From positions 5,995,878 to 6,059,877 of the forward strand of contig OZ316892.1 of the NCBI GenBank assembly GCA_973895155.1: DNA of 64,000 nucleotides, written 5' to 3'. The notes below the pieces were generated by a model, which had not been told where the DNA came from, searched no databases, and saw nothing but the letters and a program-made list of their open reading frames with translations. The DNA comes from Marsupella aquatica. Taxonomy: Eukaryota > Plantae > Marchantiophyta. A program made the translations under genes and the position numbers. Each line of letters begins with the position of its first letter. Position 1 is the first letter of the stretch. This document shows, piece by piece, positions 3,661 through 48,514 of the stretch.

Positions 3661-4822
3661 AACTATTGTGTTTGAATTTTCCTTTTCTGTGGGGTTTCAT
3701 CTATTTCCCTTCAATAATCTTTTTATTTTCAAAAAGGGAAACTGTCCCACCATTTATTCCAAACCAGCGGGAAAAAACCATGACGCCAATTATTAGATGG
3801 GTAATAGGAAGAGCCTTAAAATGTGTCATCCAGGTCAGAGTGGCCGCAAAGCCTACTCCTGCAGGTTGTCCCCTTGTGAGCAGGACTCCCCCCCCCCCAT
3901 TTGCACACCTAGTCATATAAAAGGCCCCCTGGCCTGCCAGGCTACTGTTCATTCCTGCATGCCAGAAGTGAATAGTGGAGCCTAGTACCTTAAAACGTGG
4001 AGCTCACCTTTAAAAGTTTTCCTTAGCTAGATATGCACATCTAAGAGCTACCTCTTAAAAATCCGATAAAGACATCATCAAGGCAACTTGCATTTGTCTT
4101 GTTTTGAAAGATATGACCCTAAAGAGGAGTCTGGCTTCTTGGGGACTTCTTTTGACTGGCTCATTTTTTTGGTTTATGGGACCTTTACTGATGCTCCCAT
4201 GGTCCCCTTGACCCATTCCGCTTCTGTGGACCGTGATATCTTTCACACCCTCACTCCAGGGAATTGGCTCTTCTTGGGCTCAGCAAATTGAAGCAATTTA
4301 GAAAGCTGTTTCCAGCAAGTTCATATTTCTAGTTTTCACAAAGAAATGCACAACTAGATTTTGTTGCGTCGGATGCTAACAATACCTCCTCATAATCGTC
4401 GTTAATATAATTTACGACTTCCATGACTACGTTTATAACTACGTCCGATGTAACTAAGATGTCAGAGAAATCTTAGTGCCCATTGCCCCCATTTTAACAT
4501 CGCTGGAAACATGTTTAAAATTAACGTCTCTGGATGAGCTGTCCTAAACGTCGTTCTGGTCGTCGTTCAATATTAACGTCGTAGTCGAGGACGTAATGTG
4601 TTTAGGGTATCACGACGTCAATGTTTACGTCATAAAGGGAGCCGTTAAAGTGGTAACGTAGCTCTGTACAACGTTCCAAATGAATCAAGCCATGTTAGAC
4701 GTTGAGTACATTGGTGTGGCTGACTTGAATGAGGAGTAGTCCATGCTGACTCGAGTATAGCTTGGGTTTTCTACGGGAGGATTTTGGTTTAAGAGTGCTG
4801 AGACCAAAGTAGGCTTGCGTTT

Positions 4823-5445
4823 GTGATTTTTGGAGAATGCACTCTTCCTGAGTACAGAGAAATTGCAATGTGGGATCAGTGTTCAGTCATGGTGCGCAAG
4901 TTCTTCAAGGATGTGCATTGTTGCTTCCTTCCACTTGGTGAAGAGGACAAGACTATACATGGGTTCTTTTGTCGGGGAGGTGTTATTGAGAAGTTGTGTA
5001 CGAAACAGACTACTTGCTGGCCTATACGTGGAAAAACGTTGTTGAGCACTTCAGTGACTACCATGGATTGATCGAGCACTTTGCAGAGACAGTTCATTTC
5101 ATTTCTATCCGTTGGGTAGAGTGCTCAATTCTGGCCAACAAACAGTTGGATCCAGGAGACTTCCTGCTGCATCCAGGTGATGATCAGATGTTGGATGAGG
5201 CGCCCAACCCAGATGATGGGGAGGCATATCCACCTACATTGCCCAAATGTGAGCTGTCTCCGACTGAGCTTCACATTGTCTTGTATGATTACAAGGAAAG
5301 TTGTGCAGCTGAGGTTGAGGCTGAAAGGCTAAAGACTGGGGAAGAGGTCGTCCGGAAGAAATGGAACCAGAGGCAGAGGCGTGATTCTTACAAAAGAAGG
5401 AAGGCAGATGAGGAGTACTACTGGTCTGGTGAAGGAACTCCTTAA
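4823..5445 (+). pseudogene. Frameshifted ORF of unknown function inside the CACTA element, convergent with the transposase
   Basis: Overlapping ORFs 4823-5071 and 4996-5445 have protein-like composition and lie between two ACGT-rich noncoding blocks; no domain recognised. Confidence 0.45.
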
Positions 5446-5971
5446 GTAGCAACAATCTGGATGTCAGTGGATGAGGCAGTTTAGTGATTCGGCTAGGTTA
5501 TAGTCGCTTTGTGGTGGACATGCAATACAGTGCTTTGTAGGACCTTTGTATCTCTATATCATACTGAATCTGAATAAAGACTCCCTCATGTTTTTCATTT
5601 TGAATGCATGTGCCAATTAATGTCACCACTGTCATTAACGTCGCACGGATATATTTATATAGTAACATTGCAATACATGACGTCTTTGGTTTAATACGTA
5701 CCCTAAAACAACGTAAGTTAGTGTAACGTCGTTGTATGTGGAGAATCAACGTCGTGTGGAATAAAGTAAACTGGGTCGTGGGTAAATTAATGTCGTTTAG
5801 GGCTCAATAAAATGACGTTAATTGGAATTAACGTCTGCCTAGTACGACGTAGTTTGTAGATACATTGGTCTACCAGACGTAGTAGTCATACAACGACGTT
5901 ACCCACAAATGCTACAAACCCACATGAAGGTGGCCATAACGAATATATACATGCACTGAATACATTTATGG

Positions 5972-8900
5972 TCATGGATCCATATCATCTACAATTACTG
6001 ATACCATCAAACCCTTCCTCCATCGTGGGAAGATGGGAATGACGATGAACCATCCTCTCATAGTGTGCATCGGAACCATAATACACTGATCCACCTGGCT
6101 AGGAAATACTATAGTGTCACTAACCTCAGTCCCGGATGGTGCTACACGAGTCGTGTCTACCCGATAGAACCCACACTCATCTTTCACCATGGTGGCTCTA
6201 TGTGGAGGTGACATGATGGATTTGTGCCACCGCACCTCTAACACAGTAGTATTAAATGACCCAAAGTGAACGTCTAAAATATCCAATACAGTGCCACAAT
6301 AGGGAATCTCAACATCACCTGGGTCTGTCAACATGAACACTCCTGAGTTACATGTACTCTTCTTCATGTGATCTGTCCTCCAAGTGCGAAAGTGGTGCCT
6401 TGACTCATACATGTGTGTATGGGTCGTTGCCCACAACCCTGGTCCCCTAATGATGTTCTGTACATCAATGGGAATGGATAAGGGTCCATGCTCTGCAAGG
6501 AGCCTATCCATGCGCTCCAATGCCCATACGCAAAATAATGCACACCGTCGTGGAACTATCGGTTGCTGCTCCAAGAATGCACTGCAAAAAATGTATGAAT
6601 CCATGAGAATATTGCACAATCCAAAGAAGTGCTACTTGAACCCACTCTAACTTCTACACACATAGAATGTAGAACAACATCTACTGTTAGATTAACATAT
6701 ATAGAGAGTTGCATATATGTACCTATGCAACTCCCTCCACTGAGACATCTCTGGGCGATTTCCCAACACATAATTGTGGATATGTAGGCGAAGTATGTCG
6801 TCATGTAGTGAACGCTTTTTTGATGCACCAATCAAACGCAACCCACCATTGTCATCATCTTGTGCCTCTTCCCAAGCTGTGGGAAATTCTATGTCCAAAC
6901 TCCCTATCATCCCTCCGGAATAAAAGAGGCACTCCGACATGATATACCCCGTTGCCATACTTCCCTCTGGTCGAGCTGGTTGACGCACCATGGACTTGAG
7001 CACTTTCATGAAGCGCTCTACCCAATACATCCAACGTGCATGGATAGGACCAGCAATCGCGACCTCATCCACCAAGTGACATAGTAAATGCAATTGCATG
7101 TCAAATATGCATGGGGGAAACACCTTCTCCACATTGCACATCACGCGAGCTGACCTCTCCCTCATCAAAGGAATCTCAGACTCCTTTATCTCCTTAGTGC
7201 ATACCCACCTATGTTCCTCCTCAAAACCATCAAAGATTTTGTATATCAGATCCAAATAGGGCCATAGAAAAATGAGTTTGAAATACTTGTTGAATTACAG
7301 GGCTCCTCCAGCGGTAACAAGAACTTGCAAGAGAGCAATGGGAGAGATTTTGGTTATCATACCTGAAAATGGAGCACATCTCATATATAGTCAGACGGAG
7401 TAAACGACGCTCCCGAGAATCATCACAACAACACAAGATTGCTGGTAGCACATGTTGTATCAACTTGTGATAATCATGAGACTTCAACCCTATTGGGGGT
7501 ATGTGATCATTCCTTGTAGTGCACCCACAAAAACCAGCTCCGTAATGGCTAGGGAACTTCATCTCGCTTATCATCCCATTCATGTCCCTCAAAACCTCTC
7601 TTGGCAAAATCCAAGGACCAGGAGGTTTCTCCCCAGTACATGTTATCCAACAACTCTTCACTACTCCAACCCTCTCAGCATCCTCTCGGACTCCACGAGT
7701 GTCATTCGTCCCATAAATGTGCTTCACCAAGTTCTTAGCAACATTCACTTCAATGTGCATGGGGTCCAACAACCATCGAACCTGGAGTCTCTGGAAATTG
7801 AAATAACATATTGAATCAGTTGCAATCTCTAAATTAAGCATTTTATTGGTCTAATTTGCTGTAAAGGAACCATGCACTTCTATCACTTACCCTCCAATAA
7901 GGCGAGTCCCACATAGCTAAGCGTCGGTTTACTCCACAATCCTTGGGTTTCAGTAACTTTGCTTCCACCTTCTCTGCCATTTGAATTTGTCCTTCAGCTG
8001 AAGGGCCATTAGGACATGGCCGCACTTCAGTCTCTGCCCAATGTGTTGTGTTTTGTCGCAAGTGGTCATCCATTGCCAAACGGACCCTACTGCTCTCATA
8101 TGTGGTTTTGTGCAGTAGTCTTGAGTACCTCCCACGCAACTCTGGGCCACATGAAGGGCAAGCTGAAAAACCTGCCACCTTCAGGCCAGATATTGTCCCC
8201 GTACCTGCCATTTCATTGAACCATGTTCAGACCACAAATAACCCCAACACTTGCATTGTACATGACATTGTGCAAACAATAGCCATTGGGTTGCCCAATG
8301 AATTACCTGGACCATCTGTGGTGCAATGAGTGATCATCACCCTCATATTGAAGGTCCTGCCATTGCCTGCTTCACGAGTGACATCTGTTGTCACTGCTCC
8401 AACCTCCCACAGATTATGTAGCTCTTCATAAGCTGGAGCCAAACAGATATCAGGATTCTTACGGGCCTTGGGTCCAGGAATTATAGCTAATAGAAGCACA
8501 TGACCCTTCTTCATTGCCAACCATGGAGGGATGTTCTGATTTATCAAAAGAACAGGCCAGATGGACTTAGGCTTCCGTCGTTGTTTATATGGGTTCACTC
8601 CATCGATTGCCAACCCCAAACAAACATTTCTTGGCTCCTGGGAAAATTTGGCCAAGTGGCATCAATGTGCTTCCACGCTGGACTATCTTGGTGGTATTGC
8701 ATTATCCCTGGTGGGGATTTGTTCTCCACATGCCAAGTCTGTAGTGTGGATAAGTGCTTTTGTCAGTAGAGATGCTGAAGTCGGGGAGTGATTGGGAAAT
8801 AACAAAAAACCTGCCAGATCCAATGTAACGTCGTCAATTCGACGACAATCACACTAAACGTCCTTCCACACTACGTATTATTAAAACTAACATCATGGAG

Positions 8901-11642
8901 GGCAACGTTTCTTACATATGATGTACCATGCAACGTTCGTTACTGCATCTCATACGACATAAAAACAAAAAAAATGTCAAGTGGAAAGACGTAAATTGAG
9001 ATGGACGACATAAATTAATCAATTACAACGTCATGTACGATGTTGTTTGAAAGAATGCAACGTTAAAAGTCGGACTTTCTTGTTCTCACATTGCGTTGAG
9101 GAAAACATTACCTTTTCTGCAATCTTGTCTCCAATGGTGTCTGGTCGATACCGTGGAAGCCTACAGTGCTCCTCTGGGCAGTGAGTGTGATCCTTGTACA
9201 CCCCTCTATACAAGATGCACCCACCTGGGCACATGTGGATAGTCTCTAAAGCCAATCCAATTGAGGCTAACAACTTTTTAGCCTCCCTCACACATCCAGG
9301 GAGAGTGTTTGGTTGGGGCAAGAGTTTGTCGTGGAACAATTGGAAGAGTGCATCTGTATGGACATCCGAACCATTGAAAACTCCTTGCAAATTCAACATC
9401 AACAAAGTTGCACCCAACCTGGATTTGCAAAACACAAACACCAGACTTTTTGCAGTTAGTCCAAGTAGCTAGATGGCATGCTTGGCACTACAACTTAGAC
9501 TGCCCAATATTCACTGGATGAAATTCCAGAGTTGTGATAATTTTAGGACAACCTTACCGTGAGGATGGAGATCCCTCAAATAGTGGTGTTCTGGCTTCAG
9601 TCTCCAACTAATCCCAATCTTCTTGATCCACTTCCATGATAGGGTGCTCGGCGTCAGGTGCATGAGGTCCAAAGTGAATGTCAACAAGGTGGGCAAAGGC
9701 ATCTTCTTCAAGCATAGGGTCATCTCCCTCATCTCCCTCATCGTCAACATCATCATCCAACTCTCCATCATATGCATCATGGTACTCCTCATCCTCATCG
9801 TCCATCTCATCATGGTCAAGGGGCCAGCGACCCTCAGCATCCTCCTCGTCTGAGAAATGTAAGGTGGCATGTACGTGAAAGGCACAGGCTGATGTAGTCA
9901 TCATTGATGGGTCAGGTGTGGGAGTAATATGTACACCATCCTAGAGTTTTCAATATGCAATAACAGATCACAATTAGAGAAAGGGTTTCCGTGATAAAGC
10001 TTACAATGAAACATCAATAATGAAAAATGCAAGGGTCACCCCATAATGGATATGTCATGTACACATGTAAACATCAATGCCAATCATAATCTACAAGAAT
10101 CTCTTCCCCTGCTCTAATGGTGCGGGTAGCATGTGTCAAGATGTAATGCGTGCATGCTATAGGCAAACAAGGGCGACTCTGGTCATGGTTCCAACTCGTG
10201 CCACTCAGCGTTTGGCCTAAACCCTAAACGCCGAGAACCAATAGTGTTGTTGATGTAACTCACCAAGTTCCCCGTGCGAGGTGGGTAACCATCAATATGA
10301 GCATACCTAGGGTCCAACTTTAGTGACATGCCATATCGACTAAAGGTTGGGCACTGTCGGGACAAAATGCGCCATCTCGCGGCCGAATACTTGGGCCCAT
10401 AGAATGGAAACAACTGAGGAAAATCATCGGGTGCACAACCGGTAGGGACCACGATATCCACAAGAGAAAATACTCCAAGTCCTACATGAGTCCCCAATGT
10501 GGAGGGGAGGATGACCCATGGGCGGTCCCAAAGTATAATAGGCTCCCGAAGCGGGAGGTCCATAGGGAGTCCAAACTGGGCTGGGAAGGAGTCCTTTAAG
10601 ATGTCCAAGGCTCTCCCTCGCAACTATCTCGGTGCCCGGGACACCGATGCATCAAGAAAAGGGCATCGGGGCGGAACAATCCTAGGTGGACGGGACTCAA
10701 TCGATCGGGGTCTAGTGGTCACCACTACTCCCCTCTCAATAGGGTGCATCCTAAACACTCTCCTCCTCCTATGAAATACACGGTCTATCTCCCTCAATGT
10801 GGCTGGCAAATCGGATGGATGGATGAGTGGTGCGAGTGCACGATATGCAATGTCTCTCAAGCGGTCCACAGGCAAAGATCGCACTACAATAGGAATCGGT
10901 TCCACATGTTCACCAAAACAAGTTCAGAATATGACAATCAAAAAATAATTCAAGGAAGGAGATGTTATCATAATTGCAATACCCAACAAAATTGTATTAC
11001 CTCTCGGGTCGGGGGGGTGTAACAACCATGGATCCCTAAATGGCTAAGGACAGTGGTCCTCTTGTGTAAGACAACACCCTTGCATCGTCTGCAAGGGCAA
11101 GGCATCTTGCAAACTTGCCCAATCCCCTGAAGAGCAGCCATGGCCTCTCCAAATCCATCAGCACGATGGGGGCTCCGGCCTCTACTGCCCTCGGAACGAT
11201 GTCTACGTCGATGACGCCTGGATCGGTGACGCCTAGATCGATCATACATGTCTGGTGAGTAATCTCTCTCTCGGTCCGACAGGTTGTCTCTCCCCCTATG
11301 ATGATGGTCATCTCTGCGTCGGGTGTAAGTACCCCCACCATGGTCCTCATAGGATGAGTCATCCCTCCTCCTCCCTCCCTCGTCATCCCTCCTCTGCCGC
11401 TCGTCATTGCTCCTATAGCCCGATGAAGCTGAACTCCCCCTATGCCGATGATGGTGTCTATGTCGGTGAGAACTACAGCCATGCTCATCGTCATCATCAC
11501 ACGAGTCATCCCTTCGCCTATCCGACTCATCATACGTCCCCCTATGATGATGATGGTATCTGTGCCGACGATGCCTGCCCCCATCATGGTCCGATGCATA
11601 GGTTGCCATGTCCTTTGTGATCAAATTTACAAAGGCCCCCAC
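5972..11642 (-). pseudogene. Multi-exon CACTA transposase (TnpD/Tnp2-like), disrupted by stops and frameshifts
   Basis: CPCRRCK..VLSHL (transposase-associated domain); CPGGCILY; YFPITPRLQHLY; EPRNVCLGLAIDGVNPY (Transposase_21); LDPMHIEVNV; GLKSHDYH; WMYWVERFMKVLK..PEGSM (DUF4218); FPSQVDQC (DUF4216). Introns 9941-11000, 9419-9557 and 8811-9111 splice in frame. Confidence 0.93.
10074..10905 (-). pseudogene. SET-domain lysine methyltransferase, decayed, nested in transposase intron 1
   Basis: GLGVFSLVDI, FYGPKY, IDG..TGNLVSYINN..PN, and after a frameshift ATRTIRAGEEILVDYDWH* (ends 10074); in-frame stops at 10624-10626 and 10183-10185. Confidence 0.85.
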
Positions 11643-12037
11643 AACATATTAAACCCCAAGCATAAACGTGTCCCGCTACGTTAACCAAACTAACGTCCAT
11701 CCAAACGACGTTCTTCTCAAATTAACGTTGTTGTTTAGGTTGCGGGGAACAAGCCAAATTTAGTTTACGTAGTTACGTACGACGTACAACGTACTTAATA
11801 AGTTAACATCGTTTGGTATGCTATAATTATGTGTAACATCGTGACTAAACCCTACACCCCTGGTTAACGTTGTGATTAGCGACGTTAAATTAGGGTAACG
11901 GCGGGTCTCCAAGGTTTGTGGGCTGCGGCTGTTTTCCTTTAACAAAACATCGGGAAGTGACTCGAATGTGACTCACATTCAACATTCAACACTTCCCCTC
12001 GCCCCCTCTTGACCTCCTATCTTAACAGTGAGTGACT

Positions 12038-13942
12038 ATGGCTCATCCAAGCTATCTCCCTTCCAGTGGAGATTTTGATGCAGACTTGGTGGCTATGGAT
12101 GATCCAGGGGAGTTAGAAAAGGTGCGTAAAGCTATGCAATCGACACATTTGCTGATACATGCTTTCAACCAGAGTTGGAAGTTCTTGGGAGGAAAAGGAA
12201 GCAAGGAGTCTCAGTTTCTGGAGTACCTGGAAAATATAGAAGCCAATGCTCCTGCCCTCGATGATTATGTGGAAACTAAGAATGCAAGGCTCTTGGGGGA
12301 GGGTGGGGGGCCTTCGATTGATGCTCTCAACTCCTTCCCGTCCCTACTAGATGATGGGTGGGACGATCCTGCCTTCAATGGAATGCAGCCTCATTCTCAG
12401 GCACCTAGTGGGACCCCAATCAAGAGCGTGGTCAGGGTAGCACATGACAAATTCCAACCTGATCAGGATCGGGACTCTCGCAGCCCGGGTCTCGCAGGCG
12501 GAGGAGGCATCGTGATAGAACACACAACAACAATAGCAGCCTTGATGAGAGAAGACGGAAGGGGAAAGGGAAGGAGTATAGAGATGCAGATCCACACAGA
12601 GGGAGATGCAAGGGCAGATAGAAGAGAGAGGTACTCACCTCAGCGTGAACGTCACTCCCACAAAAAGCGACAACCTTCTCCTGTGCGACCTGTAACTATT
12701 GCTGTGAGTCGAGACAAACTCCCAACCATCACCTTGGATGCGTTTGATGCTAGGCCGGATGTTCTGGATGAGAAGGCCCTCACAAATCGAGTGCAGACGT
12801 GTTGTGCCAAGCATTGTCCTGGTTGGACAACTTGGAAGGATCTCGCCCAGAACCCAAAGAAGTTTCAGCTCCTCCTAAACAATGTACAAGCTGGGTTTAG
12901 GAACGGCCGTGAAATAGACTATAGGCACATCAGACAGAAGATCGTAGGCTACCTTGCAGATCGGAGGTTTAGATGGAGAAACAAGGTTAAAAAAATGAGA
13001 TGCCCAAGGACAGAGCAATACCTGAAACTAGATGGAATGAGCGACGCCGACTTCAAGTTGATCGTGGCTGAGTTGGAAGCAGCACCTGACACCCCAATAG
13101 GCAAGCGAGTGCACATGGGGGACAAAGCTGCTGCAGCCCGCAAATCAAATGGCCGCCTGCGTGTGACCAATTTTTGGGGCCAGGGAGGATGGCGAGGCTT
13201 CCTTGCAACCTATGTAAGTCCCCCACCCTCTTCAAAGCACAGCTTGTTCATGCTTCGGCCGCTGCGGTGAGAACATTGAATTAACGTCATTTTTCTCCTC
13301 TAACATTGCAAGTTCTCAATTTTATGTCTACCCCCTATGTTCACCCTACCTAACGTCGTCTCTCACGATGTTACATTTAATTAACGTCCTTTGTGCATTG
13401 TTAATATGGCGGTTCCACTATAAACAACATCTTGGACGACGTTAATTAGGAAACGTCGTTATGTACAATCATTGTAATTAACGACGGTGGTAACGACATT
13501 CTACAATTTCCTGTAGAAATGCAAGTTTGGAGCCAACGCCAAGCCAAGTGAGCAGGAGCGGCTCTATTCAAAACACTATGGCCCGGAGGCCCTATGGGCT
13601 AAGCTGGACTCTGTCCCGGAGGACCACCCAGTGGTAAGTTACATAGTCAGGTTAGGTTCCTTCTATACTAAGTTTTGCATCCACTATTTGCAGGGAGGTA
13701 AACTGATCCCTTATGTCATGTGCAGGAGGATTGGAGTCCTCCAGAGGGGTTAGTGGCACGGCCCATTGCGAAAGATGAGGAGGCAGATCATGGAGGGGAG
13801 GAGCCTGATACGCAGGAGGAGGCCTTAGTAGACTGTGGGCAGGAGGGCAGTTTAGGTACACACGGCCGGTCATCTTCTGACCTCTCCCCTCCAATGGAGA
13901 CTGATAGGGGTCATACCAACCATAGACGACGGAGAGAGAGAA

Positions 13943-13975
<33 letters not shown>

Positions 13976-14238
13976 AGAGGGGGGGAGGGAGGGAGAGACA
14001 TAGAGAGAGGAAGAGGAGCCGTGTCAAGAGGGATACCACTAGGGGACACAGTGGCACTAGAGATGTAGTCCCCAGGAGTAGAGGCAAGGGAGCTGCGGAG
14101 TTGGTGTCTGGTAGTAGTAGTTCAGACGAGGATCCACTTCGGTACGAGTTGCGGCCCCGAGGCAAACAGTCGGAGGCACCGCCACGTATTTCTGTTCACA
14201 GGTCTGGACGTGATAGGAGCCGCTCTCAGTGGCATTAG
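12038..14238 (+). CDS. Second CACTA gene (possible TnpA-like accessory protein), predicted exons 12038-13213, 13517-13633, 13726-14238; ~601 aa, intact
   Basis: Long ORF with GTAAGT donors at 13214 and 13634 and TAG/CAG acceptors, all phase 0 with no stops; basic helical region, NFWGQGGW motif and R/E-rich tail. The TnpA-like call rests on position within the element. Confidence 0.7.
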
Positions 14239-16987: not shown

Positions 16988-17070
16988 CTAGCTTTGGTCA
17001 GCTGGCCAGGGGGGTTAGCCTAGAACCCATAGCCCCAGATTCAATCCTCCACATGCAAGGGTTGTGGAGG

Positions 17071-17103
<33 letters not shown>

Positions 17104-20400: not shown

Positions 20401-20989
20401 ACACATGCTCCCTGCTCTAGTAATCTATCTTCAGCTATCAGTTTCTAGCAGTAGAATGTTCAAGATAAGCCAATGCTTATGAACGACCGACAGCATGGCT
20501 GCCTCTATGTGAGATTGGTGCTGGATTAGTGATAGTTGTGTCTTCTTCCACCCTTTACCCTCCTACTGTCATCCAAGTTTCCTTAATGAGATATTGCTAC
20601 AATACTTTCCTCGGAATGCATTCTTTCGGACTAATCGTGCGTTCGTTATGCGGAGTCGTTGGTTGAGGAAGTTCCAACCGGTTCTGCTGTACGAGCTTGT
20701 GTAAGGAAGCCACCCTTGTCTATGATTAAGTCCCTTAAGATAAATGACAGGGAGATCGTGCGAGCGTTGCAAAATGCTGAAGCGCTTCTTCAACGCTGGA
20801 AGTGAGATAGGGAATGGATGAATGAGTGGAACTTGATTTTACAAGGTCTTAACTAGATACAGCTTTGATGTGGCTTTTAGAGTATGACCAAGTCGTGGCT
20901 CTGTTGTCCTGTAAAAAACTTTTTGCTACGAATCGACGGTGATGAGGAATTTGGTCCAGTCATTTTGATTTTAATATGCTTGGTGGCGG

Positions 20990-29239: not shown

Positions 29240-29419
29240 GGTTTACACAATTTTGTAAAGGTCACCTTAACGATTATATGTTTATTCATTGTATGTCAAT
29301 TACAATGTTCTGCATTTTGTTGATAATATTCTATCAAACTTTGTCGTGAATGCCCAAAATTGTGCTAAATGTGTTTGTACATTGTCAAATATCGCAGATC
29401 TTTTGTACACATCGCAAAC

Positions 29420-35738: not shown

Positions 35739-36199
35739 CTCGGGGGTCTCACTATATGGAGGACCCCCCCATCACCTGCGACGTTTTCATGCCTAGACCC
35801 CCATACTTATTAAGTTGAATTTTTTTTTTCCTCCCTCTTTCTTTCTTCTAAGAGTCTAAAATCCAAATTGTATTGCCCCTATAATTTGTGAAGTAAAGTG
35901 TCACATATCAATATAAAATGCCTAGAAAGAAAAGATAAGTCTATGTCAGTACCTTGTGAAGTCGTATGTCAGACATGGCACGCCCTGCAACAGTTCTTGC
36001 ACCTTTGTCAACCTTAAACTTTGATCATTTCAATGCATCATTTATATTGTGTACCTAAAAGGTCATCCCAATATAAACCTTACGTGCATAAGTGGGATGG
36101 CCTTTAAGGTCACAACATAAATAATCCATTCCACCCATTGATCACCAATCCCATGCTCCATCCATACTCCATTTAAAACTTATGTTGAGAGATGTAACA

Positions 36200-36283
36200 T
36201 GTGACGGAGGGGAATTGAACCCCTAATTGAGAAAGGATCTCAAGTTGCCAATCCGTCACCCCCTATCCTATCCCACTACACCC
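36200..36283 (-). other. Short tRNA-like/SINE-head fragment
   Basis: Minus strand reads GGTGTAGTGGGATAGG..GGGGTTCAATTCCCCT (A-box-like, then a T-arm/B-box hairpin); no convincing full cloverleaf. Confidence 0.35.
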
Positions 36284-36385
36284 ACTAATATTAACAAAAT
36301 AAAACATATATACAGACTCTCAAAAACTAAACAACAAAATAAAACATATATACAGACTCTCAAAAACTAAACAGTAACATGATAT

Positions 36386-39300
36386 TCATACCATTGTTTG
36401 AAGATACTGATCCAAAGCACGTCTATCTATTGGATCCAACACATAGATACGATCCATAACCCCTTCTTTCATGGTTAAACTAACACTAGCAATGACCATT
36501 TCAATATCCATCCATTTCAAATCAGTGGTATCATATCTGAATTCACTTTTGCTCTTACCAATAGGACTATACCAATTTAACAACAGTTCACAAATGTTAC
36601 CTGATTGCCCTGCAAGTGGATTTGGCCTATCCATCAAATCAATTGGTGACCGACAATTGCCCCACCTACTGCCATACTTCTGTCTCATTTGGACAATCCG
36701 ACCCAACCAAAAATATTTCTTACCTGCTGAGATTGCCTCCACCACAACCTTATTCTTTCCTCCCTTTCTTTTTCCAGATCTAGTACTTGGAGCAGGACTA
36801 TCATCAGACTCAAATGCAATTGCACAATCAGTGCCAACATCAACAAAACATGAGTTAGGATTGACTTCTTGCACTTTTCTCTTGCCAGTACTATAGTATA
36901 GCACTTGTTTCACCCTTGTCAGCCTATCTTTTGACAAATGCGGATTTCCTACCAACTGGCTTACCAGAGTGGATTTGTAAATCACCTTGCCTTCATAAGT
37001 AACAGTAGGCACTACCTTGGTACGATTCTGTACATTAGTTACAGCATGGACAACTGATCCAAACACATGCCGAACTTCATGACCTAATGTCTCAAGCTCA
37101 TCTGAGGGGTCTACATCAAACTGTATATCATCTCTGTGTACATCATCTGAATGCATCTCAGGAACAACAATGGGATCTGGTTCTGTTAACCATGCATCTA
37201 TTCTATTCAGATCATCCTCAGGATCTTCCAATTCATGAAAATCTCCAGTTGGGCGAGGACCTATGTCTGGTGGTTGGTGCTCTACTTGCTCCTCAGAATC
37301 ATTGCAAACAATTGCTTCCTTCAGAACCACCTCTAGTGGCCAGGTCTCACTTTCCACAACCCAAGGACATGTCCACCATCTCTTTCTAGCTGCTGGTAAG
37401 GAACTTCGTGGAGACATCTGCAATTGATGCATAAGATCCTTAGCAGCAACAAAACCTTCTTTAAGGGCTGCAACCACTAATTCATTAGTCTCAATGAGAG
37501 AATAGTCAAGTAGATTTGGTGCTTCCTCCCCTTCCCCTATAGGATGAATCTTCCCCCATACATGATCTTGTTTCTTATGTGAACGACCTATCTTCAAGCC
37601 TTCTGGTCCATATTCTAGGGCAGCAAGCCGGTTCAGTCCAACAGCACTATCCAACAGAGAGCCAAAATCATAATTCCGCTCATGGCCACTCATGCCTCCT
37701 ACCTTGCTGAAGAAAATCTCACAACAATCTGAACCTAGCAAGTGGAAGGGAACACCTAGATGTGGGAACTTATCTCGAAAGGCACAAATTAACAGCACAA
37801 TGAAATGACATGACATGTTAACATCATGAAAAGCCTGAATAGACATCATGTCTTTCTCAGTGTGTGCTGCAAAGTTCCCACCCACTGAATGGTCACCAAA
37901 CCTCAACCACAATCTCCACAAACGTAGAAAGAATGAAACCTTGGATGCTAACACAATACGGGACCTCAAATCATGAACTGGAGAAAAGAAAATATCTAAG
38001 TAATCTGCACAAATCTCCAAGTACAACTGAGTTCCTAAACTTCGTTCATGTTGTACATCTCTCCTCTCATACATATCTTTTAGACATTGCTGCACTCTTC
38101 TTGCTGCTATTCGTTGTGGACCTGCCCAATTCTGCCGGTCAGTCCTATTCACATCATCCCAAGCCATGCCATGTTCATGAATTGGATAATGATTGTAGAC
38201 ATTAGCTACATAAGATAAAGATGCATGTTGATCTCCTAGCACCAGTAAAGAAGACACTCTGTCTAAGGGGTTTATCATCTTTTTCCCATTATGAGGTTGG
38301 TCTTGGTCACCAAAGCCATACAAATCTCCATTTGGTAGAATTGAAACAGAGTATGTCCACCCTTCCCACCCAACTCCGTACCTTGGGTATGATCCATTCT
38401 GCCCTCTGTAATCTTCCAGCATCAGCTTTCGGCGACGTGCATCACCATCACTAGCATGTCCAAGCAAAGGGCCTACCATAGCTCTACAATATTCATCCCA
38501 AAAAGCCTTTAACTGGACCCAATGCTCTCGTACCCGGCCAAGAAGCTGTGAACTTATTACAAGTTGGAAGTGCACACACAGCCAATTTAGGTAAGGACTC
38601 ATGCAGAGGATTCACAATCACAACTCGGGCATACATGCACTTGGGGCATTGTTCAAATGTACTTACAATTTTATCATACCCCTCATCACCTTCACCAACT
38701 AGAATTTCCAAACCATAGGAGCATACATGCTGCTCTGAAGGTCCACAGAAACCAATGAGAGTATCATACTTTGCCTCCCACCTGAAACACAGACATGCAA
38801 TTTTTCAATATCACAGCAATTCCAGCCAAGTGCTACTTGTAAAGTCATTAAAAAAACAATTGGAAAAATGTCCAGTTCCAATTACCTAGGGCGTTCTTTG
38901 ATCCTTGTTTCATCCTCAGCAAAGATAACAGGCACATCCCCCTCAATGCCCAATGAGTGCTTTGCAGCAGACAACACTCTAGCAATCTCCTGAAAGGTTT
39001 CCTTCCGTAACCCGGTTCGAAAAGGTGTGAGTTTTGCTCTATCACGTTTTAGGGTCACAAGGCTAGGGGCTGTCAAGTTTCGTGCAAAACAATGAGCAAC
39101 TTGACGGCCCCCAAATTGGAACATAGCCTGAGCAATAGCTCGAGTCCTATTACTGTAACGATTACCTTTTGGCTTCCTGCCTAAATTGCGAGCTACATCC
39201 TTCAAGAAATCCCACAAACCCTCCTTACCACCAAATGCACCATTCCTGTGTCCATTCAAAATACTCCTAAGAAACAATCTCAAATCCTTCCTGTCTGCTG

Positions 39301-40966
39301 CAACTCCTAACAACTCCTCTAGTTTACGTTTCCTGGTGCTCAAGGCACATACTTTCTGAGCCTGCAAAGCTAACAACCAACGCTCTTTTCGTCGCACAGA
39401 GTTCAGGTTGTGCACTTGATCTCTTAACTCTGTGTTGGTCAAATAATCCAAACGTATACCACCAGCAGTGGTTCGGCTCCCTCTGTGGACTACTGCTTCC
39501 GCTTCCCTGTGCACCCGTCCACGAAAATCATCTTCTAGTGTTATAGAATCACATTCACTACAAGTTAGATTTTCAAATCCTCCTCCATTCTGTGATAACC
39601 TCAAGCAATCCTTGTCTCTAAAACAGCCTGCTATACTCACAACACTCTCTCTACTTGGATGGAAAACATCCAAGCAACAACTTGGCTCACAATGCCATGT
39701 AATTCCCCCAGACTGATCATCTAAAATGCCAGAAATATCATAAGATATACCCTTCCATAACAGTCGAGGCACACCTCTCTCTACCCATAATCCCCAGCAA
39801 AGCAAACTCAGACCAAGATCAACAAATTCACACACACCTGAACCTGAACCTGAACTGCTGCCTGTCCGGGACCCATCATCTTTAAAGAACTTCAAAATCC
39901 CGCTCTGACCAGGATGTAGGTCCCTAGAATCAGTCCTCTTTGGCCTGCCCCTCTTCCCAGACCTCAAGGCAAGCATTTTTGTGTCATGCCTAGTCTCCAA
40001 TGCATCCAAGTGATCTCGACTCACTAAGTGTGTCCTCAAATTGGGCTCCAAGGTAAGCTTCTTGGGGCACAAGTCAGTGTGAAGCATTCCACAGACAGTG
40101 CAGCGAACCTTAAATAGGAAAGACCTGTTTACATACTCAGGAGTACTGGGATCAGGAACAATAGAGAATAGTTTGCCATCATCCCCAAGCTCAGCATTCA
40201 ATCGCTGAACTATCTCAACACCTACTTTGATGGCGTCTGCATGATCATATTCTGGCTTCTCAGAGATGTCTGCTACCTGAACCAAAGTAGAAGGAATGCC
40301 CCTTCTCCGACAATAGTTATCCTTGTGCTTATTGAAGACCAAGTGTTTGGTCTTAAAATTACTAAAGCAATTGGAGATGGATTTAGGGTTCTGAGAGTTG
40401 TCTGCATTGCCATAAGTTTCCCTACATTCAAGACACTCCAGATGCCCTCGAACATCTGTCCCCTCATCCCAGGTACGAATTCTCCAATTGTGATCACCAT
40501 AACCCTTCTTATGTACCCATTTCTCTAACCTCATCCACTCATCTTTCCATAGCTTTGATGGGACATCTCCCATCAATTGTGACTCAAAAGAAGCCCTTAC
40601 AGGGGAGGGTGCTAGTGCTGTTGGCCTCAGTTGTGGTGTCTCAGTATTTGGACCCAATGATGCAGGAGTGCAAGGATGACAGGGTACTGGTGGGATCCTC
40701 CCACCATCTCCAAGTTCTTGTTGTACAACAATAACTCTTCCATCCAGCTCAGACAGATCAATTAATTTCTCATGTACAAGTTTCACTCGACCAGGAAGTC
40801 TCTCATCCCAAAAATCGAAGTCAAAGTCTAGAGTAGAGGCAATACGAGCCCTAAAATCATGTAGGGTGTGTCCTTCTTTGAATGACAAAACACAGATTGG
40901 TAAATCAGCCTTGTCATCCCCAACTTTGCGTATTAATTTAACAGAGTTGGGTTTAGGGGCTGCCAT
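36386..40966 (-). pseudogene. P-element-like DDE transposase, ~1490 aa reconstructed; intron 38782-38885; one frameshift near 38535
   Basis: Ordered motifs FAEDETRIK, DTLIGFCG, HASDGD, DQPHNGKKMINPL (DxxH), DRQN, GSDCCEIFFS resemble the P/THAP9 catalytic core; N-terminal CxxC..H zinc-finger-like motifs and an AT-hook (KRGRPK). Confidence 0.75.
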
Positions 40967-41465
40967 TGCAATACAAATCTAGAACATGCATAGCACCATT
41001 GCTTTTGGAGTCGATAACAGAAAGACCTGCACAAATACATTTGAAATACACACAAGGGAAACACATTAGGATCTTCAAGAGATGCAATGACAACATACAC
41101 ATTCTCATGTCAGTAATGTACATAATGTCAGCATACATTTAACAATAGAAGTGCTAATAGGCCAAAACACTTTATAATGCAATCCATCATACATGCAAAT
41201 GTATTCAGTGAAAATCATGATATACCGTTAAAGTTGGATAAAATATCTTTAGAAAAAATATCCTTTTTGCCTAGTTTTCTAACAATTCCTGAGGTTTAGT
41301 GCTTTTGCTCATCAAAATGCAGCACTATTAGTGACCGTAATTATGACAAAATGTCAACACTAATAAAATTGGGTACTACCACCCATGATGCAGCTTAAGT
41401 ATATGCCTTGCTCATACCCCACTAAGACGTTGAAACCTAAGTAATAGGTTTGTTCATTATTCAGA

Positions 41466-42215
41466 TCACTGGAGCCATGAAATGTGGTCCCTGATTGGAG
41501 TCTTCAGGTGTGGATCAATAGGATGACGGGGGCAATAAAACATCTGTCGCTGTTGTCCATGTGCTTCATGTTCCCAGATGTCCCTATCATGAGCAAACCC
41601 TTTGCTTTTGATCATCTGGAGACAATCTGTATGCCAGGCATTTGGACATCGTAAACATTGTACCATGTTCTTGACCATCTGACCCTCAAGACTCTGATAA
41701 CATGTCACACATGTATGCAGTGGGCAGGACTTTGCAGCAGCTACCAAACACCCAAAGCAATAAAATCGTACACAAAAATGATCAGAGCATTTTCGCACAA
41801 TTGTAGGTGACGGTCCCACAGTGCGGCACCCATAACACATGGCCTGGTCCTGGTTACAATTTGGGCAAAACCATGGCTTCCCTCCATGATGGAGGGGAAG
41901 GACTACACAGGGGCAAGAGTCATTAGGGGCTTCATCTCCAACCACATAATGAAATTGCCTGTGACATGGCCCATCACAAATTACCAACTTCCCACCATGC
42001 TCACAAATTGCACAAACATGAGGGCTGGTTTGTAGAATCTCTTGCTCAGAGAACAAGGGAATACACAATACCTCTTCTAAAGAGGATTGTGTTGCTTTCT
42101 TTATGTTTGAAGTCCTTGTCGGCATGGTTACAACTGAAATCATCACAAAGCACATCACATATGAGAGGGACATGTATGATACTGGGCAATCCATAGAACT
42201 TGGAGAAATCCACAT
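41466..42215 (-). CDS. EDM2/NSD-type tandem PHD-finger protein carried by the P-like element (true start uncertain)
   Basis: CAICEHGGKLVICDGPCHRQFH..WFCPNC..CYGC..CPLHTCVTC..CLRCPNAWHTDCL..FYCPRHPIDPHLKTPIRDHI follows the EDM2 PHD-cluster pattern. Confidence 0.85.
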   Translation of the reverse strand: MWISPSSMDCPVSYMSLSYVMCFVMISVVTMPTRTSNIKKATQSSLEEVLCIPLFSEQEILQTSPHVCAICEHGGKLVICDGPCHRQFHYVVGDEAPNDSCPCVVLPLHHGGKPWFCPNCNQDQAMCYGCRTVGPSPTIVRKCSDHFCVRFYCFGCLVAAAKSCPLHTCVTCYQSLEGQMVKNMVQCLRCPNAWHTDCLQMIKSKGFAHDRDIWEHEAHGQQRQMFYCPRHPIDPHLKTPIRDHISWLQ

Positions 42216-42467
42216 TTGAAGTAGTTACAAACCTGCTCCAATGATCTGCAAACCTCCCTCCCAGATGAAGTCAACTACACAGTGCAGCCTGGACACCCAC
42301 CAACCAAGACATACATAAATACAATGCCAGCTTGCGAAACTTTGCCACATAATGGGAATGAAAATTATTCTCATATATCATGGATGGTACAATTGCAGCC
42401 TTGCAAACAAAGGCCTAGTCATCCCGGACCTCAAGTCATGAACAACGCATCCATGTACTATCAGGGA

Positions 42468-42866
42468 CTACAATGTCAAGCATCCATGGGCTGTAACCTT
42501 AGCTTGACCTGGAATACTATCTGGGGCTACAATATCAAGCTCAGTTATATGTGGAATACTATCTAGGACTACAATGTCAAGCGTGTCCGGGATGACAATC
42601 TTGCGTAAAAGACACTCATTTTGAGGCCAAATGGTTGGCCTTATACAAGAGCACCTCCAGCGACGTGTGACAACTTTGCCATGCTTTCCCATGTATGTCC
42701 TAGTAACAAGTCTTCCACGCATTTTCAAGCAGAAGCAATGGAACCATTCAAAATTGCCATCACCAACCCTGCACTTCACACAAGATTCGCACCAGCAGCA
42801 TTCATCTGGATGCTGCAAAAGGAGCTTCTCATAATTCGCTTCTAATGTAATGCCCAATTTAGCCAT
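42468..42866 (-). CDS. Small Cys-rich ORF of unknown function in the P-like element, possibly an upstream exon of the PHD gene
   Basis: 132 aa, ATG start, CCWCESCVKC..HCFC..CSC, same strand as the neighbouring genes. Confidence 0.35.
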   Translation of the reverse strand: MAKLGITLEANYEKLLLQHPDECCWCESCVKCRVGDGNFEWFHCFCLKMRGRLVTRTYMGKHGKVVTRRWRCSCIRPTIWPQNECLLRKIVIPDTLDIVVLDSIPHITELDIVAPDSIPGQAKVTAHGCLTL

Positions 42867-44999
42867 GGCACTATTTTTTTTACTCGGTGAATGGCCAGGC
42901 GATCAGACGTGCAATGACAGGCAACTTACAATTCACTAGGTACAGTATGTGCTCTAGCAAACTGCTTCACCGCAAGTGCTGGTGCTCACAGCTACAAGCA
43001 CTGATTGCTTTTGCAACCTGTGAACAAAATTAAAACCACCAGTTCAATAAGTTTCAAATGCTGCAAGCACTGAAGACAACCAATTGGCCATGATGCATGT
43101 TACGACAGCAATAAACAAATAATTGGGCTCAACAGACCTGAATAGCTAACCTGAATAGCTAACCTGAATAGGATCATGGACCTCTCATAGCTATGGTGTC
43201 CTTCCTACATTACACATTGGTCTAATTTATGCAGTGTTTCACTATGATTGTGTTCCATAGAAGAGCATCCAATCTGGCTGACCATTGGAGGAAGCTTGGG
43301 CTGGGTCATAGCTACAGCAATTACTCCTCTGCAAATGCTATTTGTTGGTAACACATGTTTACTCATCAGTAGATGAATGAAGCATCTGAGGTTTTTGAAA
43401 CTTGTGCTCTGATGAGGGAGTGAGTGACGTGGGAGCCATGATAATCATAGATTCAATGCAAAAGCAAAATCCGTGCTCAAAGGCAAACGTGGCAAAATTG
43501 GGTATATGTTCTTCACTGCCAAAGCTTCTGTTTGCGCAGCAAAATCCACGAAAGGAATGAAGGAACAAGGGGGAACTCCAGACTCAAGAGCCTCAATTGC
43601 TGCATTGTGGAAACGCGTTGCGTGGGAGAAGTCATTGGCTTGTAGAAGAAGTAAAAGTGTGCTGGTGAAGGATTTTGTGGTCGGGGTGCATCATAAGGTT
43701 GACACAGAGAAGAGAGAGGTGTGGAGAGGCGAGGAGAGGAGCAGAAAAGTAGGAAAGGCCGTGTAAGGCAGTCGATAAAAAGCGAGTTAGGTTTGGAGTG
43801 TCCTCTCGACAGCAAAGGATTTCGTGTGTGCTGAATTTGTTGCTGGTCCAAATTCCAGGAGCCAGTCAGTAACGGAATAGTGGAATTTTGGGAATAGCAG
43901 ATGCTCATCAGTCGCAGCATCTGCGTATGTTTTGTCATCTGGGGAGAATTCAATGAGGTTTGTGGTTTTGGGGAAGGCTGCTGTGAAGAGTTTGTGTTCG
44001 TGTGGAGGGATTGGTGGCAAATTTTGATTGGTGCAGGGCAGAAGTAGCAAGAGATGGGAGAGTGACAGGATGTGGAGATCGGTTGGCCGTAACCAAGGCA
44101 GCGCCAATGACGACGAGGAGCGCGAAGAGGCAAAGGCGGAGGAAGATGAGGAGGTAGAAGAACCAGACCACCAAATAGAGAATTTACTACATCAAAGACA
44201 CTACAGAGATGAGCGCATCAATGGGCTACAACATATTCAAGTGTGGATCCCTTTTTTGCAATCAACTCACGGAAATAGAGGATTTACACTTACTTGCCCC
44301 ACCACAAATCATTCTTGGAAGTGTCTTCCTTGACAACACGTTTGTCCTTCGGAGATCGGCCAGTTTTCGCCCCGGAAAGCGTGGCAAGAGCCCCTGTCCA
44401 GGTGATGTACAAACTCTTCTCGTGCTTCAGAGCCTGTTCGTAAAGCGCTGCAAAGAGAAACGGCAAAAACTTTAGTCATTATAATTGAATCAGAACATGG
44501 GAACAGACAGAGACAGCTTCCAAACGCTCAACTAAATCCTGAAGCAACAACCATGACGATCGCGACCCATATGCGGCGAATGGACACAACTATGCTAGGA
44601 CAGGACACAACGAGAGGGCACCGATCACCGTATCTAGAGAGCTGATTTATTCGTCTCCTACAAATCATAAGTCGCACAGTAGAGTTTCTACGCATCTTAA
44701 CGTAGGAACGAAGGTAAAAGGTAGTTTTTTTACCAGGCATCCTTGGAAATGAAAGCAACTTTTGAACTATCGACATGATGTGACAGAGTACAAGAAAGGC
44801 CTTCAGTGCATGTGAAACAGAAATGCTAGAACTACTCATGAGTTCACATGAAACACAATTCCCCGGTCTAACTACTTTCAAATCTCGATGGGCAAATCTA
44901 ATGCATATGACTTGCGCAAGCAATGTCTATGGAACACATCGGCTACGACCGCTACCAGATAAGGTGTGCCATGCGTGGTACATATGGGCTTCAAACAGT

Positions 45000-45965
45000 A
45001 GCAAGCAAGCATGATTGAGCGTCAAACAATAGCAAGCAAGCAAGCACGATCGTCAAAGCAGGAAGCGCCCACCTCCTGGTTGAGCAACACAGCAATGCTG
45101 GCAGTAGCCCTCGCAATCCTGTTTGAGCAAGCAACAATGCAACACTCTCGCTCCCGTTTCAGCAAGCTAGTAGCTCCCGTTTCAGCAAGGTAGCAGCTTC
45201 CGTTTCAACAAGCAGCAACGCCACACTCCCGGCACCCACCTCTTGTTTGAGCAGCTGCAACGCAGCACTTGCAACAGCCACACTCCCGCCCGCACTCCCT
45301 GTTTGAGCAACAACACAGCAGTCACATAAACTTTCCTATCATTTCAGCAACAGGAACGTAGCACACTCCCTCAACCAAGACAATAGCGCACCTATACACT
45401 CCAACCTTGCAGCGCAACACTCTCGCCTAATCCTTCATTCCCGGGTTCACTCCAAGCAGCAGTGCAACCGAGAAGTCTCGCTCTCCCCTTTACTCTAAGC
45501 AGCAGCGCAGCTGAGAAGTCTCGCTCTCCCCTTCACTCTAAGCAGCAGTGCAGCTGAGAAGTCTCGCTCTCCCCTTCACTCTAAGCAGCAGCGTAGCCAA
45601 GAACGACCTTGATCCTTCACTCCCAAGTAGCAGCGCGCAGTCGAGAACTCTGGGTTGATCCTTCACTTCAAGCAGCAACAGCAGCAACGCAGCCGAGAGC
45701 GCAACACTCTCGCTCTCCTCTTCACTCCAAGGCGCAGCCAACAACTCTCGCTCGATCCTTCGCTCTAAGCAGCAGTGCAGCCAATAAATGTTGCTTGATC
45801 CTTCACTCCAAGCAGCCGTAGCAGCAGCGCAGGCGAGACCACAACACTCTCGCTCGATCCTTCTTCACTCACAGCCGAGAGCACAACACTCTCGCTTGAT
45901 CCATCTTCACTCGCATCCGAGGTCACAACACTCTCTCTCAATCCTTCTTTGCTCCAAGCAGCAGC
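45000..45965. repeat. Subterminal tandem repeats of the P-like element, including a 43-bp unit
   Basis: TCGCTCTCCCCTTCACTCTAAGCAGCAG.GCAGCTGAGAAGTC x3 at ~45475-45600, plus degenerate ACACTCTCGCT..ATCCTTC..CACTC units. Confidence 0.85.
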
Positions 45966-46517
45966 ACACTCGTTTAGACCCCCGTTTACACCATTTGCTG
46001 CAAGGTACAAACAAAAGAGTCTCTCATCCCAAACAGCGGGTGGGGCCAAAGGGATATTGGAGGGAAATGACACGGGAGGAGACTAAGAAGGGCGGCCAAT
46101 TGAGGGAAACTAGACATGTTAAACGGAACAATTTCAAACTTAATCCCACTCAAACCCTAAACGTGAGTCCCCAAAAAACCAGACCCACTTAAATCATTCT
46201 CAAATTAGAATCCATGTTAAAATAAACATGACTTAGGAAAATATATTGAGAATGTTATGTGTGCCATGTGTACCAATGATATAGTGACACGTGTAATTTA
46301 CATAGTCCGACACAAAGACCCCCTAACTTCCTTGTATGCCTTCCATCTACATAGTCAAAAATATTAATATCCCTATTATTCTTACAAGTTGTCCAACATA
46401 TAAAATTGACCCTATTGTTCTTACACAAATCTTCTTAAGTCTTCCGAGAAACCCAATTAACGGACCCTATACTTAGTCGCACGTGATATGAGATTTTCGC
46501 GAAGTGAGACCCCCGAG

Positions 46518-47137
46518 ACTGCTTCTCGAAAAAAAGGATTATTTGAAACATTGAATGGAATACCACTGGTGTAGAAAGCTTTCGCCCAAAGCTTATCCAA
46601 ATTTGTTCTATTTGGAATTTGATAGGCATCCATAATTGGGTTAGGAAGATTTACTGGCCTATCTCCTTCCCTTACATGTGTATCATCCATGTCAACATAG
46701 TTTGACCCTCGTGTGGATGCTTGCGAATATGAACTTCCAACGCTTGGCCTACGACCTCTCACATCCCGCAAGATATGACTTCCATCTCGTCGTTTGTACT
46801 TTAAGGTCGGTGGAACCTTTATCACATTGTACATAATGTTGATGGCATCCAAATCGACGACACCATAGAGTTGCATGCAAGGGGGCGCATCCCCTTTTTG
46901 GATGTTTCCCATCAAATGCGCCTTTGCTCGTGTTGCATGATGAGTAACGTATGTTAAACAATACTTGCATCTTCGATAGATACGATTGACATCATGACAT
47001 GTTGAAGGCGCATCACATCGTTCAAAATATCTCCACACTGGAGATTGTTTTGAAGGGTGTTCTTGCACACGAGTTGGACCAGGCCTGGGAGTAGTGGAAT
47101 GATATCCAGTTTCATGCGAATCCTCTTCATCGGACAT
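46518..47137 (-). pseudogene. hAT transposase N-terminal part with BED zinc finger, separated from the rest by the nested element
   Basis: MSDEED..SPVWRYF..CKYC..RAKAHL..C; AFYTSGIPFNVSNNPFF; the joined product is 967 aa after removing the insertion and one extra A. Confidence 0.9.
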
Positions 47138-47709
47138 TGTTACGACTCTCAATGGTAAAAAAATAAAAGGGTTGATTCTTTTGATTTTGTGAATATAACA
47201 AATATAGTACAATGGGTTACTTTCCTGAATTATCGCAGACTGGGCCTAAGCTCAAAGCATGCGCAGGAAAGTTTCCCAAATTCTTATATTTGTCAACATC
47301 CCTACTTCAACCTATGTTATGTAATATCTATAACTTCACAATAGTTTATCTTTGAAGTGAACATATGTACGAGAAATCGTGATACCCATATGAAATGTCA
47401 TAGACCGAGCCAAAGCTCTAAGCATATGCACATGGGTATCTCTTTACTCGCAAGTAGTTCACTTTCAAACAAAACAATGATGCAAAGTTGTTAAGGCGAT
47501 ATAAGGAACTTCTCGTACGAATTATCGCAGACCGAGCCGAGCTCAAAGCATGCGCGTACAAGAGTTCCAATGTATCCCTCCGATCTCTCCCTAATGCTAA
47601 ACCACAAGAGAGAGAAACACAATGAGACTGTGGATTAGTGAAATGAATTAGTTATTCCTACTTATACTAAATCATCTACTTCTTATCCTCTCTTAAAACT
47701 CTTAATCTT

Positions 47710-48250
47710 TGATCCTAACCCTAATTGCGCCTCCCTTAACCCTAATCTCGCGCCCCTAACCCTAATCCCGCCTCTAACTCTTCCCCGGCCACCAATTCCC
47801 GAGCCCCGTCCCCGAACCCCGCACCCCGTTCCCCGAACCCCGCACCCCGTTCCCCGAACCCCGTTCCCCGCATCCCCGAACCCCCTACCTCGTTCCCCGA
47901 ACCCCGTTCCCCAAATCCTCGAATCCCGGCCCCCCTTTCCCGCCCCCCCTTCCCCGGTTCCCCGAATCCTCTTCCCCGAATGCCCCCCGTCCCCGGTTCC
48001 CCGAATCCCGTCCCCCGGGCCACCTTTACCCCGGCCGGCCCCGGAAGGGTCCGGGCAGGGTTTGGGTGGGGGTCCGGGGAGGGTTCGGGAAAGGCCCGAG
48101 AGTCCGGGGAGTGTTCGGGGGAGGGTCCGGGGAGGGTCCGGGAAGGGCCCGGGAGTCCGGGTTCGGGTCAGGGGGAGTTCGGGTTCAGGTCCGGGGTGCT
48201 CGGGAGGTGTTCGCGAAAGGTCCGGGGAAGTCGGGGTTCGTTCGGGAGAA
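47710..48250. repeat. Right subterminal GC-rich array: CCCTAA boxes, then C-rich CCCCGAACCCC, then a switch to G-rich GGGTCCGGG
   Basis: Direct reading; strand skew inverts at ~48040. Confidence 0.9.
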
Positions 48251-48514
48251 TCTTCAGGAATATACGTCAAATTGCGTGTTTTCGGGCCGTCATTTGACGA
48301 TTTGACGTGCCCGACAAGGCGTCAAGGTGCCTGTCAGATTAAACCGGGTAGCGGGGTGTAACAATTTACATGCAGCATAGATAGAAGTCGTCTATAAAGG
48401 TCTCCAAAATATATTGAATAAAATTTACGAAAGTTCTTAGGAGTACCTGATGGTTGCCTTCAATATGCTAGTCCAGAACGTGCCTGAAAAGGTGCTGGCC
48501 AAAAAGGTGCAATA

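Follow-up and report, generated by a model that had tools for sequence, protein, structure and literature searches.

SET, PHD, kinase and RING genes inside DNA transposons of the liverwort Marsupella aquatica: candidate accessory genes with a proposed role against silencing

Introduction

Do DNA transposons of unrelated superfamilies in a liverwort carry genes that they keep for their own use, and might such genes act against the silencing of the elements? The question is raised by a stretch of 64,000 nucleotides from Marsupella aquatica (assembly GCA_973895155.1, contig OZ316892.1, positions 5,995,878 to 6,059,877), referred to here as the window. It contains an EnSpm/CACTA-type element with a SET-domain exon, a hAT element with a protein kinase gene and a RING-like gene, and a P-like element with a PHD finger gene. 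All three are dead, and each represents a different DNA transposon family that exists in many copies. On balance we favour the view that selection on the element maintains the extra genes and that their targets are its own copies; the CACTA family gives the clearest case. A possible counter-silencing role is proposed for them.

Results

A SET-domain exon within the transposase gene of a CACTA-type element

The features of the CACTA-type element are as follows.

4349 to 14863: EnSpm/CACTA-type DNA transposon, dead copy; ends CACAACTA, 3-bp duplication ATG on both sides
11001 to 11609, minus strand: transposase gene, exon 1; His/Arg-rich stretch and transposase-associated Cys/His domain (PF13963, E 0.0008, below cut-off); phase-0 GT donor at 11000
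10074 to 10896, minus strand: SET-domain exon within the first intron of the transposase gene; stop at 10626-10624, 4-base frameshift near 10190, likely acceptor without AG
5972 to 9940, minus strand: downstream exons of the transposase gene, with Transposase_21 and DUF4218; stops present; phase-0 acceptor at 9941
12038 to 14238, plus strand: second gene, probably with three exons; its position and an inspection by eye suggest likeness to TnpA
4522 to 14680: CG-rich motif clusters (ACGACGTTAA type) in non-coding parts only, that is at both ends, in introns and in the space between the two genes

The Tnp2-type transposase domains of this element are clear (Transposase_21, E 7e-31, and DUF4218, E 7e-29, in Pfam), and it has CAC ends with a 3-bp target duplication. 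Members of the family are expected to end in the strict CACTA pentamer. The ends here read CACAA instead, and we therefore name the element CACTA-type only.

The SET exon lies between exon 1 of the transposase gene and the exon that comes next. In the window it is damaged: the frameshift near 10190 also creates a second apparent stop, and Pfam matches only a piece of 34 residues (E 0.0012, below cut-off). A set of 131 candidates contained seven homologs, with 47-66% identity along the query. They align across the whole stretch of ~270 codons, with a common end and a similar start. All seven match PF00856 (SET), two of them at the curated cut-off, and one of the seven is named, from Calypogeia fissa. 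The stop at 10626 was considered as a splice acceptor and rejected, since the homologs align on both sides of it. SET catalytic motifs are GxG, NH and ExxxDY; the family keeps GLG and EILVDY and reads INS at the second position. The best Atlas score for SET was 0.81, which we take as a lead only. Viral contigs yielded no relative of SET, kinase or PHD, and a weak match to the end of the SET family in a bacterial assembly from the prokaryote genome scan (L003:157-297; 47 residues, 32%) was taken as unrelated.

Contigs of other genomic copies, from four of four runs and two organisms, lack the SET frameshift and have an AG acceptor at 10898-10897. This acceptor, the transposase acceptor at 9941 and the GT donor at 11000 all share one phase, so that exon 1 could be followed either by SET or by the transposase sequence. 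It seems likely that SET is an alternative exon, predicted to be spliced in frame to transposase exon 1. Judged by eye, two of the homologs (P0026 and P0027) start with hydrophobic residues that look like intron sequence; the last of these, a Q, lies close to the predicted acceptor. The contigs connect SET with both adjoining transposase exons, and in diverged contigs the match covers SET and transposase exons and leaves out the intron between them (joints 9943->10073, 9709->10072, 10625->11022 and 10788->11020).

The comparison of SET copies covered 40 of 124 difference rows, of which 34 were classed and six intronic ones omitted. Twenty of the classed rows fall in SET. Eleven are variable among the copies, eight of these being silent; the other nine are private to the window, eight of them changing the residue, and two of the private changes depart from the family motif LAGYINS.

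The clustered motifs have a sharp distribution. The 7-mers ACGACGT and GACGTTA occur 15 and 16 times in the 3,477 non-coding bases of the element and are absent both from its coding parts and from the remaining 53,485 bases of the window. The second gene, which has no Pfam match, may be TnpA-like, judging from where it lies and how it reads. A short open frame by the left end of the element (4990-5445) also has no Pfam match.

A PHD finger gene resident in a P-like element

The P-like element interrupts the transposase gene of the hAT element.

35739 to 46517: P-like DNA transposon, inserted within the hAT transposase; 8-bp duplication ACTGCTTC and a perfect inverted repeat of 15 bp
36386 to 40966, minus strand: P-like transposase, probably with a single intron near 38790-38884; frameshift of 4 bases near 38534
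41466 to 42125, minus strand: NSD-type multi-PHD finger gene, intact, stand-alone, ~220 residues, 500 bases upstream of the P-like transposase
42468 to 42866, minus strand: Cys-rich open frame with family-level depth; degenerate zinc finger-like by eye, no Pfam match
44290 to 44451, minus strand: fragment of a host phosphoenolpyruvate carboxykinase (PEPCK) gene, a Pack-type passenger; contig depth here is below that in the remainder of the element
45419 to 45959: 42-43-bp tandem arrays near the right end

The PHD gene matches the PHD cassette of NSD2 in the PDB (E 1e-9). Seven of its eight matches are whole-length, at 43-82% identity and with the same start and end. This cargo may be related to EDM2. 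The label EDM2-type given to it in the original prediction suits the cassette, which resembles that of EDM2, and not the gene, which encodes a stand-alone protein of ~220 residues: the ELP methyltransferase-like, PGR and acidic domains of EDM2 are not in the PHD cargo family. The stretch upstream of PHD was considered as the methyltransferase-like domain and rejected, as it has no Pfam match. As described for Arabidopsis EDM2 and for NSD2, the common feature is a set of tandem atypical NSD-type PHD fingers, to which EDM2 adds several more domains (PMC7529245).

Contig depth over PHD follows that over the P-like transposase and is several-fold lower over 43600-44927, which includes the PEPCK fragment. 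The CpG ratio is likewise similar in PHD (0.23) and the transposase (0.28), against 0.70 in the passenger stretch and 0.65 in a host gene. Since PHD is like the transposase and unlike the passenger in both respects, it looks like an old resident of the P-like element, with the PEPCK piece a recent passenger. A decayed frame beside that piece (43448-44158) gave no PDB match; together the two (43448-44451) are likely host captures present in a subset of P-like copies.

The perfect 15-bp repeat and the 8-bp duplication are far above chance. The empty-site joint (35729->46517) was found in all four runs, and the hAT transposase frame continues across it. The frameshift near 38534 is absent from the main contig in three of the four runs; the frame break was also considered as an intron, and this was rejected on the 4-base difference from the contigs.

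There are 1,140 relatives of the transposase at E up to 0.001, with the conserved columns SDGD, DxxHxxK and GxDxxE, which were judged against the P-type catalytic signature. The nearest named ones are from Riccia sorocarpa and the fern Adiantum nelumboides, and there is also a relative in a coral. In common with the P superfamily (PMC3698922) are the 8-bp duplication, the inverted repeats and transposase features nearest to P-type (TNP-like) clusters (Atlas feature score 0.96). It differs in that no P-type Pfam match was found in the transposase or in any of the 30 relatives scanned, no THAP domain was matched by Pfam on the N-terminal 698 residues, and sequence and profile searches of the PDB gave no match. 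With neither a THAP nor a P-type Pfam match, we use the label P-like only. Two of the 30 relatives carry a further domain: P0108 ends in a Tudor domain and P0171 has a C1 domain. A comparison of the two halves of the transposase gave no result. Its first ~80 residues are ubiquitin-like by eye and have no Pfam match.

Kinase and RING genes in the hAT element

The hAT element carries two genes in its left part in addition to its interrupted transposase.

26123 to 48348: hAT (DUF659-type) DNA transposon, dead copy; ends CCCGGTTT, 8-bp duplication TAGCGGGG
26206 to 26663 and 47718 to 48211: GC-rich subterminal arrays
26990 to 27410, plus strand: module upstream of the kinase; an inverted module at 47180-47601, ahead of the hAT transposase, shares ~72% identity with it
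27584 to 29239, plus strand: protein kinase, single exon; glycine loop, VAK, HCD, DFG and APE motifs; in-frame TGA at 27746-27748
29417 to 31318, plus strand: RING-H2-like finger and coiled region in a 633-residue open frame; Pfam RING below the curated cut-off
31884 to 33173: internal direct and inverted repeats
33446 to 35738, minus strand: middle and C-terminal part of the hAT transposase, with DUF659 and dimerisation domain; frame change near 34500
46518 to 47137, minus strand: N-terminal part of the hAT transposase, severed by the P-like insertion

The transposase was assigned through Pfam (DUF659, E 2e-30; dimerisation domain, E 1e-10), and the element has an 8-bp target duplication and short inverted repeats. 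Its CCCGG ends differ from the usual hAT start.

The in-frame TGA of the kinase lies 55 codons past the likely start, and homologs align upstream of it. Eleven kinase homologs were found among 7,994 scored candidates; they are 47-82% identical and retain the catalytic motifs, and the two that are named are from Calypogeia fissa. The likeness to solved kinases is distant (best E 5e-8). In run X1 a contig of depth 184 links the left arm of the element to the kinase and one of depth 214 links the spacer to the transposase, diverged contigs having depths of 16-30. This suggests about ten close copies of the hAT element, a rough figure: contig depth does not measure copy number, and none of the listed contigs runs from one end of the element to the other. 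In run X5, from a more distant organism, there is coverage in the bins for PHD and for the transposase, kinase and RING genes of hAT, and almost none in the spacers. The modules upstream of the kinase and of the hAT transposase are inverted copies of ~420 bases, and this duplication could place the two genes under shared control.

Retention of the cargo and condition of the window copies

Whole-length homologs of the cargo span 43-82% identity overall. Selection to retain the cargo has good support in SET, fair support in the kinase and PHD, and weak support in RING. The idea of maintained accessory genes in the original prediction thus agrees with what was found: the cargo is multi-copy along with its element in other runs and is conserved as whole proteins, with a bias to silent changes in SET, and is not single-copy and neutral.

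The boundaries proposed for the elements were also confirmed, with terminal inverted repeats and target-site duplications at the CACTA-type, hAT and P-like elements and the cargo genes inside them, as were the internal motif arrays. As to domains, Pfam supports Transposase_21, DUF4218, DUF659, the hAT dimerisation domain, the kinase and the NSD-type PHD, and places RING and SET below the curated cut-off. The description of the elements as autonomous and of their cargo as full-domain does not hold in the window, where all three transposases are disrupted, SET has two apparent stops and a frameshift and the kinase has its in-frame TGA; at best it applies to the families. Nor are there three separate loci. 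With the P-like element inside hAT there are two, one of them nested.

Discussion

How might the cargo act? An action on the element's own chromatin is ranked first because the layout of the CACTA-type element matches the motif-guided anti-silencing of Spm TnpA and VANC and adds an enzyme domain. The SET exon, spliced onto transposase exon 1, would give a putative methyltransferase that marks chromatin at the element so that it stays transcribed; either the shared exon 1 or the second, TnpA-like gene could bring SET to the CG-rich motif clusters. The PHD protein would read histone marks on or near P-like copies. The duplicated module would turn on the kinase and RING genes together with the hAT transposase, and the two would tune the transposase or a host protein. 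A wider claim is that unrelated superfamilies of bryophyte DNA transposons each have a chromatin toolkit of their own: a self-targeting histone writer made of exon 1 and SET in CACTA, a free PHD reader in the P-like element that shields copies or decoys EDM2-like host factors, and a kinase and E3 ligase in hAT directed against a host silencing protein. Such a set would amount to a catalytic, motif-guided route of counter-silencing in land plants. We put the wider claim forward only tentatively and consider it doubtful as a whole.

Several observations weigh against the favoured reading. The SET family has INS in place of the usual INH and lacks a Cys-rich tail; none of the seven longer SET matches is a fusion of exon 1 with SET; sequence and profile searches of the PDB with SET gave no match; AlphaFold models of two SET homologs are of low confidence (mean pLDDT, the predicted local distance difference test, 36.3 and 35.9); and several of the silent SET sites may stem from the same few contigs. 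Within the window all three transposases, SET and the kinase are broken, with the PHD and RING frames open. The kinase and RING show no chromatin-specific feature and, among the 31 of 40 difference rows that were classed, silent changes make up two of five in the kinase and three of five in RING, too few to show bias either way. A metagenome scan gave two short PHD loci, both broken, and no transposase was present in the short flanks of either, so that it is depth that links PHD to the P-like element beyond the window. No PHD, SET or kinase was found in the same protein in 158 P-like homologs. Lastly, CpG is more depleted in the P-like element than anywhere else in the window, which argues that PHD did not spare it CG methylation.

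The alternative that survives best is that the cargo is selected and serves transposition. PHD might steer insertion to marked chromatin, the kinase and RING might modify or degrade the transposase, and SET might methylate a non-histone protein or silence the element to limit harm. This would fit the CpG depletion of the P-like element despite its PHD gene, the Tudor and C1 domains of two of the 30 P-like relatives, as expected of targeting readers, and the non-standard SET motifs. For the kinase and RING, which lack a chromatin-specific feature and share an upstream module with the transposase, it is the more natural reading. The CACTA motif, however, is located in introns and between genes, like VANC targets, and the CACTA and hAT elements have CpG ratios of 0.61-0.70 against 0.65 in the host gene, that is no extra depletion, which is a weak hint. 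For the cargo as a whole we regard service to transposition as possible, if improbable, and prefer an action of the cargo on the element's own copies.

It is unlikely that the cargo is host sequence captured passively and drifting neutrally in the manner of Pack-type elements, its homologs being host genes or remnants. The broken state of the cargo and transposases in the window, apart from PHD and RING, and of both metagenome PHD loci would be in keeping with such drift, and the same P-like element does hold a true passenger in the PEPCK fragment. The Pack-type profile, short host fragments without selection, fits that piece but not SET, PHD or the kinase. Several findings speak against neutral capture: the genes have one exon each and keep their start and end points across homologs at 43-66% identity, the SET copies show a silent-change bias and exon-only conservation, and no ordinary host gene is among the kinase, PHD and SET matches (in length-limited searches).

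It is very improbable that the elements co-operate, or are selected together, as a single locus. They do all lie within 44 kb, one inside another, but the empty site in hAT is present in four of four runs, the P insertion disrupts the hAT transposase, and 11 kb of other sequence including a host-like gene separates CACTA from hAT. The presence of three families within 44 kb is most simply explained by nested insertion rather than as a functional cluster.

The closest known counterparts differ in instructive ways. Spm TnpA is described as lowering CG methylation on cognate copies (10.64898/2026.08.24.746577, PMC13547354). The En/Spm system with its TnpA and TnpD products, in maize and as Spm3 in Arabidopsis, shares with the element studied here the CACTA type, a second product, alternative splicing of the transposase, predicted in our case, and clustered motifs. 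TnpA, as far as it is described, derives from the DNA-binding part of the transposase, whereas here the alternative exon would be a SET domain and a separate TnpA-like gene is present. The available parts of the En/Spm accounts name no SET, PHD or bryophyte case (10.64898/2026.08.24.746577, PMC13547354). VANC of the VANDAL (MuDR) elements is likewise an accessory protein encoded by the element, with short motifs accumulated in non-coding regions; it belongs to a different superfamily, its function has been shown experimentally, and no VANC-like domain was detected in the window elements (PMC5735166).

Catalytic cargo also has precedents. HarbingerS and MuDR elements of Phytophthora are reported to carry SET genes (Kojima and Jurka 2014, as cited in PMC12730594). 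Those are oomycete elements of other superfamilies, whereas here SET sits inside the first intron of the transposase of a land-plant CACTA element. Among fungal transposons bearing TET/JBP genes, IS3EU also has an alpha-kinase gene, their function being inferred (PMC12730594). According to the same source, several superfamilies of one lineage hold chromatin- or DNA-modifying cargo and one of them a kinase, as in the window, but in fungi one enzyme family moves across superfamilies and here each family has different cargo. A literature search returned nothing on the present bryophyte element families, with Repbase Reports, most subscription journals and supplements outside its scope.

The elements are real and are variants on a known theme of transposon-borne SET and kinase cargo. 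The known plant anti-silencing factors VANC and TnpA are DNA-binding proteins of flowering-plant elements. If our reading is right, the bryophyte SET, PHD, kinase and RING cargo would widen the arms race between element and host to catalytic cargo and to bryophytes, in which DNA transposons have been tied to trimethylation of histone H3 at lysine 27 (H3K27me3; PMC11982613). Cargo that only served transposition would be of lower value, although selected accessory enzymes would still be of note. The P-like transposase family, present in liverworts and ferns, is also of interest for the classification of transposons.

Other features of the window

At the left end of the window lies a spliced host gene for a 2-oxoglutarate-Fe (2OG-Fe) dioxygenase (1089-3326), with copies of its start region upstream (152-1120, spacing 277-314). 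The open frame at 20975-21883 has a weak Rce1-like (CAAX protease) match and is likely a host gene. On the right, a 46-100-bp repeat array (58058-58781) is likely a further non-autonomous element, and the AT-rich stretches 48512-49250 and 59227-59781, which have dispersed similarity to each other, are likely further elements of this kind.

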